Part shown: piece after piece, positions 39,146-48,601 of the stretch | Layout of the letters: each line of letters starts with the position of its first letter | Numbering within the stretch: the stretch's first letter is position 1 | NCBI GenBank assembly: GCA_039033415.1 | Contig: JBCCCR010000022.1 | Coordinates: 29,579 to 93,578 of the forward strand | Reading direction: 5' to 3' | DNA: 64,000 nt | From: Pseudomonadota bacterium | Lineage (GTDB): Bacteria > Pseudomonadota > Gammaproteobacteria > Xanthomonadales > SZUA-38 | Made by a program: the position numbers and the translations under genes | Notes under the pieces: model-generated | What the model was told of the DNA's origin: nothing | What the model saw: the letters and a program-made list of their open reading frames with translations, nothing else | Database searches by the model: none

Positions 39146-39420
39146 GGAAAAGCGGCCGAAAACGGCGTCAGGTGGTTAGTCGAACGATATTGGCGCTTTT
39201 CCAGGGGCAATGCAACAATCGTGCAAAAAACACAAGATGTAGCGAAAAATCCCGTATCTCGCCCCAGATCTGGGGGTGTAAGGAAACTGACTGACAGGTG
39301 CCGGCGCGCCGATCGTAGGGCTCGGACCCGAAGCTGCCGCCGGAGCCCCACTTTCTCCGGCCAGGGAAGCGCCTGCCGACCGAAATCTCCCGGAGACCTC
39401 AGCTAGATCGCAAACAGCCG

Positions 39421-46268: not shown

Positions 46269-47084
46269 ATGCATATTCTGATCAGCAACGACGACGGACT
46301 GGACGCGCCGGGCATCGAGATGCTCGAGCGTCAGATCAGCCGGGTCGCCGAGGTCACCGTGGTGGCGCCCGACCGCGACCACAGCGGTGCGTCCAACTCG
46401 CTGACGCTGAGCGCGCCCATCCGAATTTTGCACCATGCCGGCCACCGCTATCGCGTCGCCGGAACGCCTACCGACTGCGTGCACCTCGCGCTGACCGGGC
46501 TGCTGGACCCGGAACCCGACATGGTGGTTTCCGGCATTAACGCCGGCGCTAACCTCGGTGACGACGTGATCTATTCCGGCACCGTCGCCGCCGCCATGGA
46601 GGGGCGCTACTGCGGGCTGCCGGCGGTGGCCGTATCGCTGGTTTATGACAACCGGCCGCGTCACTTCGAGACCGCCGGGCTGGCGGCGGTGCAGATTGTC
46701 CAGCGCCTGGTGAGCGATCCGCTGCCGGCGGACACGATACTCAACGTCAACGTGCCGGATATTCCCTGGGATCAGGTTGCCGGCTTTGAAGTGACCCGGC
46801 TGGGGCACCGCCATCGCGCTGAACCGTTCGTCAAGCAGCACGATCCCCGCGGGCGACCGGTTTACTGGATCGGCGCGGCCGGTCCCGCGCTGGACGCAGG
46901 TCCCGGTACCGATTTTCACGCGATCAGCCGCGGCTGCGTGTCGGTCACGCCGATCCACGTGGATCTGACCCGCTACACGGCGCTGGAAACGGTGGGCAGC
47001 TGGGTCAGTGGCCTGGACCGGGCGCTGACCAACCCGGCGGAGGCTGCCGCGCCCGCCGCGACGACGGACGTGTCACGCCGTTGA
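46269..47084 (+). CDS. surE: 5'/3'-nucleotidase SurE
   Basis: '[16 protein letters not shown]' and '[25 protein letters not shown]'. Start set at ATG 46269. Confidence 0.95.
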
Positions 47085-47119
47085 ACAACCCGGGTACGCA
47101 GTCGGTCGCCGGCATCGGC

Positions 47120-47755
47120 ATGACCTCTGCGCGCACGCGCCAGCGGCTCATCGAGCGGCTGCGCCAGGGTGGGGTCACCGACCAGCGCGTGCTGGACGCG
47201 GTGGCCGCCGTGCCGCGCCATCAGTTTGTCGACGAGGCCATGGCCAGCCGCGCGTACGAGGATACGGCGCTGCCCATCGGACGCGGGCAAACCATTTCGC
47301 AGCCGCTGGTGGTGGCGACCATGACGCAGGCGCTGCTGACGGACGGACCGCTGGAGAGTGTGTTGGAAATCGGCACCGGGTCGGGTTACCAGGCCGCCGT
47401 TTTGGCGCTGCTTGTGCCGCAGGTGTTTACGGTGGAGCGAATCGATGAGCTGTCGCGGCAGGCGCGGCGACGCTTTCGCCATCTGAAGATCCGCAACATT
47501 CGCGCCAAGCAGGCGGACGGCGGCGAGGGCTGGGCCCAGAACGCGCCGTATGACGGCGTCATGATCACCGCCGCCGCTGACCACGTGCCGCAGGCGCTGT
47601 TCGATCAGGTGGCGCCCGGCGGTGTGCTGGTGGCGCCGGTGGGGCCGGTGGGCGGCGTTCAGCGGCTGCTTAAGTTCTCGCGGCGGGCGGCGGGTTTCCG
47701 CCGGCAGGATCTTGGGGCGGTGGTGTTTGTGCCGCTGCTTAGTGGGCTGGAATAG
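47120..47755 (+). CDS. pcm: protein-L-isoaspartate O-methyltransferase
   Basis: 'VLEIGTGSGYQAAVLA' SAM motif. The N-terminus 'MTSARTRQRLIERLRQGGVTDQRVLDAVAAVPRHQFVDE' aligns with E. coli Pcm from residue 1. ATG 47120 is preferred over TTG 47081. Confidence 0.93.
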   Translation: MTSARTRQRLIERLRQGGVTDQRVLDAVAAVPRHQFVDEAMASRAYEDTALPIGRGQTISQPLVVATMTQALLTDGPLESVLEIGTGSGYQAAVLALLVPQVFTVERIDELSRQARRRFRHLKIRNIRAKQADGGEGWAQNAPYDGVMITAAADHVPQALFDQVAPGGVLVAPVGPVGGVQRLLKFSRRAAGFRRQDLGAVVFVPLLSGLE

Positions 47756-47758
47756 GTT

Positions 47759-48015
47759 CTGCGAACGCTGCGGAAATGAATCCTGTTGCCCCTGAAAAAG
47801 CGTCAATGTAGGCGCGAGGAGAGAAATCTGGTGGGTCCAAATGAACGACGAGCAACGCCCAGTGACGCTTTTTCAGGGGCAACCCGCAGGGCCGGGCCCC
47901 TGTTCCCGCCGGCGGCGTTGTCAGTCGCTTGTTTAGCGGTGCTAAACGGCGCTCCCTCCGCCTTGCCGGACGAAAACAGGGACTCCGGCAGGGTCCATTT
48001 CCGCAGCGTTCGCAG
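47759..48015. repeat. 257-nt nested inverted-repeat element: a 20-bp perfect outer stem enclosing a 21-bp perfect hairpin and a second long imperfect hairpin
   Basis: Outer stem: 'ctgcgaacgctgcggaaatg' (47759-78) pairs with 'catttccgcagcgttcgcag' (47996-48015). Inner hairpin: 'gttgcccctgaaaaagcgtca' (47785-805) pairs with 'tgacgctttttcaggggcaac' (47863-83). A third imperfect hairpin spans about 47889-47990 and is centred on 'gtttagc ggt gctaaac' (47931-47). Confidence 0.7.
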
Positions 48016-48022
48016 GCCCTAA

Positions 48023-48601
48023 ATGGGGCTGTTTGCGCCGCTCTACGACACGACGCTGCGCTGGTCGCAGCACCGTCTTGCGCCCCGCTATCTGGCGGGA
48101 TTGAGTTTCGCCGAGTCCACCTTTTTTCCGGTGCCGCCGGACGTGATGCTGATTCCCATGGTGCTCGGCAAGCCGGCAAGATGGCTCCAGCTGGCGGGCC
48201 TGTGCACGGTGATGTCGGTGCTGGGTGGCCTGTTTGGTTATCTGATCGGGGTCTTTGCGTTCGAGCTGATCGAGCCGCTGCTCCATCGCTTCGGCTACTG
48301 GGAAACCTTCGAAAAAGCGCAAGCTGGCTTTCAGGAGTATGGCTTCTGGGTGGTCCTGCTGGCGGGCTTTTCGCCGATTCCGTACAAGATCTTTACCATC
48401 GCCAGCGGCACTGTCGGCATGGCGCTGCTGCCCTTTGCGATCGGCTCCCTGATCGGTCGGGGCGGCCGGTTTTTCCTGGTGGCTGGCCTGATCCGGCTGG
48501 GCGGCGTCAAGGCGGCGGACAAGATTCGGCAGTACGTTGAGGTACTGGGCTGGCTGCTGGTGGTGCTGGTGGTGGCGGCGGTGCTGTGGCTGCGCCACTA
48601 G
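48023..48601 (+). CDS. YqaA/DedA-type (VTT-domain) inner-membrane protein
   Basis: 'LSFAESTFFPVPPDVMLIPMVL' and 'FSPIPYKIFTIASG' are typical of the YqaA/DedA SNARE-associated family, with 4-5 hydrophobic segments. Confidence 0.8.
   Translation: MGLFAPLYDTTLRWSQHRLAPRYLAGLSFAESTFFPVPPDVMLIPMVLGKPARWLQLAGLCTVMSVLGGLFGYLIGVFAFELIEPLLHRFGYWETFEKAQAGFQEYGFWVVLLAGFSPIPYKIFTIASGTVGMALLPFAIGSLIGRGGRFFLVAGLIRLGGVKAADKIRQYVEVLGWLLVVLVVAAVLWLRH

Follow-up and report, generated by a model that had tools for sequence, protein, structure and literature searches.

The 64,000-nucleotide (nt) stretch of gammaproteobacterial DNA analyzed here, referred to below as the window (assembly GCA_039033415.1, contig JBCCCR010000022.1, positions 29,579 to 93,578), carries pcm (PCMT; Pfam PF01135) at 47081-47755 on the plus strand, followed in order by the VTT/DedA-type membrane protein gene yqaA (48023-48601, plus strand), nlpD, and rpoS. 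The subject of this work is a nested inverted-repeat element of 265 nt (47755-48019) that separates pcm from yqaA and that we consider as a candidate MITE (miniature inverted-repeat transposable element). The dinucleotide TA stands on both of its flanks (47753-47754 and 48020-48021), and these two copies form a putative 2-base pair (bp) target-site duplication. The left TA and the first base of the element, G47755, make up the pcm stop codon TAG, and the ATG of yqaA lies 1 nt past the right TA. The initial annotation of this region had reported that no target-site duplication flanks the element; this was wrong, because the repeats had been truncated by 4 nt at each end and the TA flanks were thereby overlooked.

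The element consists of a long outer stem that encloses two hairpins, and none of its parts is assigned a strand. The left terminal inverted repeat, GGTTCTGCGAACGCTGCGGAAATGAATCCTG (47755-47785), was delimited by repeat finding and by comparison of the ends, and within its first 7 nt it departs from GGGCCTG, the consensus of the family alignments, at two positions. The right terminal inverted repeat (47989-48019; reverse complement GGGCCTGCGAACGCTGCGGAAATGGACCCTG) retains the consensus terminus. The perfect 20/20 outer stem described previously (47759-47778 with 47996-48015) was recovered both by direct reading and by a repeat finder, and it extends to 33 nt at 88% when the flanks are included (47753-47785 with 47989-48021). 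Hairpin A (47785-47883) is closed by a perfect 21/21 stem (47785-47805 with 47863-47883), also correctly noted before, which extends to 24 nt at 96% (47785-47808 with 47860-47883, 23/24 paired) around a 51-nt loop (47809-47859). In the family alignments hairpin A has a conserved foot, GTTGCC...GGCAAC, and a conserved loop block, GAGGAGAGAA..TGG..CCAAATGAACGACGAGCAACGC. A junction, CCCGCAGGGCCG (47884-47895), belongs to the motif GCAACCCG(A/C)AGGG. Its identity is 84% when the window-like subfamily is compared to the gammaproteobacterial one; with respect to the Burkholderia subfamily it is unconserved (~20%). Hairpin B (47896-47988) has a long imperfect stem with the mini-hairpin GTTTAGC-GGT-GCTAAAC at 47931-47947; the minimum-free-energy fold contains this third hairpin (~47889-47988) much as the initial annotation had drawn it. 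The interior of hairpin B and the loop of hairpin A are inverted paralogues; in one family member (L262) both loops are 56 nt long and 73% complementary. The motif GCCCCTG or its complement, previously counted four times, occurs at exactly three sites (47788, 47874, and 47896); the fourth, at 47977, reads CAGGGAC and has one mismatch.

This nested hairpin is well beyond chance. Folded as RNA, the plus strand reaches -155.7 kcal/mol (z = -10.9) and the minus strand -169.9 kcal/mol (z = -13.4), none of 200 shuffled sequences folded as well, and the chance expectation for a 22-nt arm is 0.00 occurrences in the window. Neither a promoter-like (sigma-70) site nor a U-tract terminator was present on the sense strand of the element, and its only terminator-like site is weak, has a 5-bp stem, and lies in antisense (47861-47849). 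A sigma-54 promoter was considered and rejected, the required spacing and the TTGC being absent. The element has no credible open reading frame (ORF). One small ORF (MNDE...), for which the conserved block offers a motif resembling a Shine-Dalgarno sequence, was discarded, as its ATG is not conserved in the Burkholderia copies.

We compared orthologous junctions on contigs encoding YqaA homologues from four other lineages. Contigs L266 and L267, at 84-88% nucleotide identity, share the junction GAC TGA CT ATG with a 2-nt spacer, and L079 and L081, at ~79% protein identity, likewise have 2-nt spacers (TGA GC ATG and TAA CC ATG). The previous statement that relatives have only short gaps at this position therefore holds, and the element is absent from the orthologous site. 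The 2-nt spacer is thus ancestral and the 267 extra bases at the window junction, GAA TA(GGTTCTG...CAGGCCC)TA AATG, are derived. Judged by the polarity of these junctions, the element in the window is an insertion. In a clade of ~95% identity (L077, L078, L264, and L265) the junction reads GAT TAGGGCCT ATG. Here TAGGGCCT corresponds to TA followed by the six bases with which the family consensus terminus starts, and it is also the reverse complement of the intact right end of the window copy, TAGGGCCTGCGAAC. We read it as an 8-nt remnant of the same insertion, later lost by excision or by hairpin-mediated deletion; the remnant may be a footprint or the product of a slipped-strand deletion, and there are differences of 1-2 nt before the ATG. 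That the sister strain might instead preserve an untouched empty site, with TAGGGCCTA as its palindromic target, was considered and dropped, given that empty Burkholderia sites have no palindrome and a more distant relative reads TGA-CT-ATG.

The element belongs to a dispersed family with members in Beta- and Gammaproteobacteria. A sensitive blastn search of a plasmid collection recovered copies of 266-295 nt that share its three-helix architecture and size and lie at unrelated loci, in Halomonas sp. PA16-9, two Azotobacter chroococcum plasmids, a Pseudomonas aeruginosa plasmid, and, in part, Methylophaga. Burkholderia, Paraburkholderia, and Caballeronia replicons also carry copies, several per replicon; two Burkholderia chromids gave 8 and 14 matching places, although a palindromic copy may count once per strand and the copies are then fewer. 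A scan of viral contigs with TCGTCGTTCATTTGGA found one true copy (L161, IMG/VR) amid chance matches, and the phage collection gave no match. Window-like copies were found at two gene junctions: one, in L261, separates flgA from flgB and shares 71% identity with the copy in the window, and the other, in L260, separates dprA from a DUF494 gene (dprA/smg). Other copies lie by acyl-CoA genes. The copies stand in both orientations relative to transcription, being sense to the surrounding genes in the window and L260 and antisense in L185, L096, and L186. Two Burkholderia-subfamily sequences show how the family decays and undergoes deletion: one (L193:2502-2622) is a derivative of 121 nt with an internal deletion, which keeps both terminal repeats and some of hairpin A, and the other (L194:2501-2554) is a left end by itself. 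Elsewhere in the window, an intergenic sequence at 39190-39210, TTGGCGCTTTTCCAGGGGCAAT, resembles the right arm of hairpin A at 20 of 22 bases; it scored E = 1.2 against the family hidden Markov model (nhmmer) and is probably a chance match.

Family members start with TA-GGG(C/T)CTG and end with CAG(G/A)CCC-TA, or near variants, with terminal repeats of ~30 bp, and the ends are paired in all 16 aligned members. TA stands on both sides in 11 of the 16 full-length copies (the window copy and 10 others), nine of these 11 in the context YTAR. In Burkholderia, filled and empty versions of one site could be compared. The filled B. cenocepacia site reads GACAT-TA-(element)-TA-AATTC, and the empty sites, which contain no palindrome, read GACAC-TG-AATTC in B. 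arboris and GACAC-CA-AATC in B. stagnalis; beyond the element itself, the filled site has gained exactly 2 nt. This comparison supports a putative 2-bp duplication at TA. A 4-bp YTAR duplication in the style of the IS5 group was rejected, since the window has ATAG/CTAA and B. cenocepacia TTAG/CTAA, with TA alone in common. At exactly the position of the B. cenocepacia copy, B. multivorans (L191, NZ_CP143551.1; alignment A1, columns 87-116) carries a 30-nt hairpin, TCCGGCCCCTGTTCCGGCCCGAAACAGGAG, and B. arboris and B. stagnalis are empty at that position.

The stop codon TAG formed by a flanking TA and the first G of the element recurs at four independent insertions, in pcm (window 47753-47755), dprA (L260:2772-2774), an SMP-30 gene (L185:1785-1787), and a GST gene (L188:281-283). 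Because the element starts with G, pcm is left unharmed, its stop restored as TAG, and because the termini are symmetric, TAG is regenerated in either orientation. Targeting of a stop-codon TA, with the stop restored by the first base of the element, would offer a route by which such insertions are tolerated.

Conservation of the structure was assessed with RNAalifold on 13 full-length members. Of 93 predicted pairs, 64 show compensatory double changes, and standard pairs fill 94.2% of cells compared to 74.5% in shuffled alignments, none of 500 shuffles reaching the observed value. When the partners were slid by 1-3 columns, pairing fell to 33-41%. Covariation was present in every helix, including the two mini-hairpins, one in the loop of hairpin A and one in the interior of hairpin B. 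Between subfamilies, identity is 83% over the terminal 9 nt, 33-38% over the inner part of the terminal repeats, 56-62% in the hairpin A stems, 33-35% in the hairpin B stems, and 63% in the hairpin B interior. The mispairs comprise 22 G·T and 18 A·C, so neither strand is favored and the constraint is strand-symmetric. What is constrained would accordingly be the palindrome as DNA, or the two strands alike, rather than a function of RNA from one strand. Of 89 pairs, 68 are Watson-Crick in the window copy, compared to 85-88 in Burkholderia copies. These mispairs and the two substitutions at the left terminus fit an old copy whose drift would have begun before the sister clade diverged by ~5%.

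A search of the literature by terminal sequences matched only one described element, the autonomous ISAba31. ISAba31 is an IS5-family element of 858 bp with the repeats GGGTGTGTTGACACTT / GGGTCTGTTGACACTT and a 2-bp duplication (PMC4776018), and elements of the IS427 group measure 832-865 bp and make 2-bp duplications or direct repeats (PMC3281130). An ISAba31-like copy from IMG/VR is inserted in the context CTA-...-TAG and encodes a 248-amino acid (aa) product with DDE_Tnp_1, DUF4096, and DDE_Tnp_1_2 domains; ISPaes2, an IS427-group element, is among the homologues of this transposase. Used as a tblastn query, the transposase found homologous elements in Aeromonas salmonicida and B. thailandensis, and gave no match in the 64-kb window. 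These autonomous ISAba31-like elements are ~830-860 bp long. The A. salmonicida element has the ends GGGGCTGTTGACGTTTTGCC / ...GTTTCACA and repeats GGGGCTGTTGACGTTT(C/T)..., which match the MITE termini of Halomonas at 17 of 18 bases and those of Azotobacter at 18 of 20. The B. thailandensis element (repeats GGGTCTGTTTACAT, ends GGGTCTGTTTACATTC) matches the Burkholderia MITE terminus at 14 of 14 bases. Overall, MITE termini match ISAba31-like elements over 14-27 nt; the similarity ends at the terminal repeats, with no internal likeness between the MITE and the autonomous elements. From these matches we infer that the mobilizing enzyme is an IS5-family (ISAba31-like, IS427-type) DDE transposase. 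Separately, ~17 matches in marine viral contigs (L195-L217, IMG/VR; e.g., L196:5592-5620) share a terminus in which TTC(T/C)TA is followed by GGGTCTGTTGACACA(T/C)T(G/C)AT, together with a conserved left flank; marine phages or their hosts may thus carry in their DNA a further repeat or insertion sequence whose ends are of the ISAba31 class.

Taken together, these data make it highly probable that the element is a non-autonomous MITE mobilized by an IS5-family transposase (ISAba31-like, IS427-type), that it entered the pcm stop codon at its TA and is now a decaying relic, and that it is not an RNA regulator specific to this operon. The anatomy, the insertion polarity, the dispersed family, the 2-nt gain, and the match of the termini to IS5-family elements carry this reading. 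The initial annotation was right to list a MITE among its options, which it treated as unproven; the tests that it named, copy number and presence or absence in sister strains, favor this option. The proposed history is that a non-coding element was moved in trans by an IS5-family DDE transposase recognizing its terminal repeats. This enzyme would insert at TA, usually within YTAR, and duplicate the TA. At this locus the insertion would have entered the stop codon of pcm where that gene adjoins yqaA, restoring the stop as TAG. It would predate the separation of the sister clade of ~95% identity, and that clade would then have lost the element save for TA and 6 nt. The window copy would now be decaying, with its two left-terminus substitutions and more mispairs than other copies. 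No matching transposase lies within the 64 kb, and the copy is therefore probably immobile.

Several observations weigh against this reading. The window contains one copy only (scan of the 64 kb), which leaves multi-copy status in the host unproven. Exact-match searches with the window terminus (an 18-mer against GTDB representative genomes and a 20-mer against JGI metagenomes, neither of which includes the source contig) returned only single chance matches without extended similarity. The window repeat matches the autonomous elements found over its first ~7-9 bases only; no element with GGGCCTGCGAAC ends was found, and a viral-contig scan with TAGGGCCTGCGAAC gave chance matches only. Flanks are imperfect in four full-length copies (TA..TT twice, CA..TG, and TT..TT) and in the L193 derivative (TA..TG). 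TA is palindromic, so that a 2-bp duplication cannot be distinguished from an element ending in A...T inserted between T and A. Finally, the core is kept across subfamilies whose repeat interiors differ, which is unexpected for MITEs that are simple deletion derivatives.

This last point bears on the possibility, which we regard as distinctly less probable, that the element is a MITE in which a conserved core would itself be functional. This core comprises the foot of hairpin A, the junction, and, in hairpin B, the interior of ~55 nt that includes the mini-hairpin. The core might be an accessory site for a host factor or the transposase, a cruciform, or an RNA-level buffer easing insertions between co-transcribed genes, and the element might be a self-evolving structured parasite that fits its terminal repeats to different transposases, in place of a set of deletion derivatives. 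Such a function would account for inner repeats and hairpin B stems that remain paired at only 33-38% identity between subfamilies while the interior and the termini are kept at 63% and 83%, for the excess of compensatory pairs over shuffled and slid alignments (64/93 compensatory, 94% of cells paired, 0/500 shuffles, 33-41% when slid), and for the lack of internal likeness to autonomous elements beyond the terminal repeats. Copies also recur in very short spacers of co-directional genes (window, L260, L185, L096, and L186). The window copy, however, decays at about the rate expected free of selection (68/89 Watson-Crick pairs compared to 85-88), the symmetric G·T and A·C counts speak against selection on RNA from one strand, and covariation among descendants of a few master elements overcounts independent events. 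With similar reserve, we raise the possibility of an undescribed, ancient, structure-constrained MITE class with a three-way-junction core and loop motif, whose repeats would track IS5/IS427-type transposases in Beta- and Gammaproteobacteria. If this were true, G-first ends and a TA target would let the element occupy TAA and TAG stops and regenerate TAG in either orientation, so that in GC-rich genomes it could occupy operon junctions almost without harm, with the core serving as an accessory binding site or as an RNA- or DNA-level buffer.

Other mobilizing enzymes are harder to reconcile with the termini. IS630/Tc1-mariner-type transposases target TA, classically in CTAG, and duplicate it, and mobilization by one of them would agree with the TA flanks in CTAG or YTAR context and with the TA-GGGCC-TA of the sister clade, which resembles a cut-and-paste excision footprint. 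In addition, an IS630-family element directly abuts two Azotobacter copies, but the termini of this element (GTGTCTCAACACAC...) are unrelated to those of the MITE, whose terminal CTAG it used as its own target. The same IS630-family sequence sits at the terminal CTAG of these two copies at opposite ends, right in L095:2770-2830 and left in L097:1317-2502, and MITE ends therefore create IS630 target sites. No IS630 transposase was present in the 64-kb window, and as the MITE termini match IS5-family ISAba31-like elements over 14-27 nt, we consider an IS630-type mobilizer unlikely. The same match contradicts an element moved as single-stranded hairpin DNA by an HUH enzyme (REP/REPIN with RAYT, or IS200/IS605-like) and inserted between T and A without duplication, which we judge very improbable, even though its hairpins are strictly Watson-Crick and strand-symmetric and copies with imperfect flanks keep the inner A and T beside GGG/CCC while the outer bases vary. 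The terminus TAGGGCCTG loosely resembles E. coli REP, GTAGGCCTG, and was counted in its favor. Against it stand the direct TT...TT flanks of L098, as expected from a true 2-bp duplication, the 2-nt gain in Burkholderia, the long terminal inverted repeats of the family, which are absent from HUH elements, and the failure to see a RAYT or TnpA(Y1) gene in the annotated neighborhoods of copies. Equally doubtful is a dedicated structured RNA, or a processing, terminator, or insulator element, of the surE-pcm-yqaA-nlpD-rpoS unit. The alternatives offered by the initial annotation were of this kind (RNA with a structural role, insulation or termination, and processing by RNase III), and the very stable sense-strand fold, the position between co-transcribed genes upstream of nlpD-rpoS, and the covarying helices are in keeping with this. 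As the origin of the sequence it is not supported, because the site is empty of the element in all relatives examined, because homologues lie at unrelated loci (flgA/flgB, dprA/smg, and acyl-CoA genes) in either orientation, and because there is no Rfam match, no sense-strand U-tract terminator or promoter-like site, and no strand bias or G·U enrichment.

An IS5-mobilized MITE could nonetheless affect the operon it entered. The 2-nt spacing of pcm and yqaA in relatives suggests that the two genes are probably translationally coupled there; the insertion plausibly abolished this coupling and placed 267 nt of very stable structure in the transcript before the yqaA start. Correia (NEMIS/CREE) elements of Neisseria and ERIC/IRU elements of enterobacteria are TA-flanked small palindromic repeats that often lie in operons, are co-transcribed, and form long RNA hairpins; they provide published cases in which RNase processing depends on the hairpin and the stability of the mRNA is changed. 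By analogy, processing or stability of the pcm-yqaA transcript could be altered here, which would be the likeliest secondary effect. There is no sequence kinship with these elements, which are single hairpins of 100-170 nt, while the family described here has a three-way junction and is about twice as long. REP and REPIN sequences, mobilized by RAYT, are similar in being GC-rich extragenic palindromes with compensatory stem evolution and strand-symmetric pairing, but REPINs are shorter, lack DDE-type terminal repeats and a duplication, and are linked to RAYT, which was not seen here. A further parallel is MITEPsy1/ISPsy2 of Pseudomonas syringae, a non-coding element whose repeats match those of an autonomous IS5-family element (PMC3189936). 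MITEs of this type are likewise intergenic and of low to moderate copy number. MITEPsy1 uses a TA-containing target, CTAG/YTAA (PMC3189936), and the IS427 group and ISAba31 share the 2-bp duplication. MITEPsy1 differs in its length of 100 nt, its 4-bp duplication, and its other repeats (PMC3189936), whereas members of the present family measure 266-295 nt, have repeats of ~30 bp, and conserve both internal hairpins as well as a block of ~55 nt. The family differs from IS427-group and ISAba31-like elements in having no internal similarity to them, and no partner with the window repeat variant was found.

MITEs of IS5-family elements are already known as a kind; we could not find this family in Rfam or in the searchable literature. 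The window region had no match in Rfam 15 at E <= 1, and other members gave only sub-threshold noise of the miRNA-hairpin type. What is described here is a MITE family that spans many proteobacterial genera, with unusually strong compensatory evolution in all helices. The core and all helices are well maintained across subfamilies whose terminal repeats have diverged.

For annotation of the window, these results remove a candidate regulatory RNA upstream of yqaA-nlpD-rpoS and explain the three ORFs that cross the element, which the initial annotation had already called spurious. A search of the element translation against 1.84 billion protein representatives is consistent with that view, returning 30 short ORFs (P0121-P0150, 43-196 aa) that are unannotated and without Pfam domains. 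Four metagenome loci fetched from these matches (L259-L262) are all gene calls over further copies of the element, and the remaining protein matches are probably the same false predictions. In the public protein collection, then, no fewer than 30 representatives of clusters look like false calls, and a model of the family would aid in clearing them from annotations.

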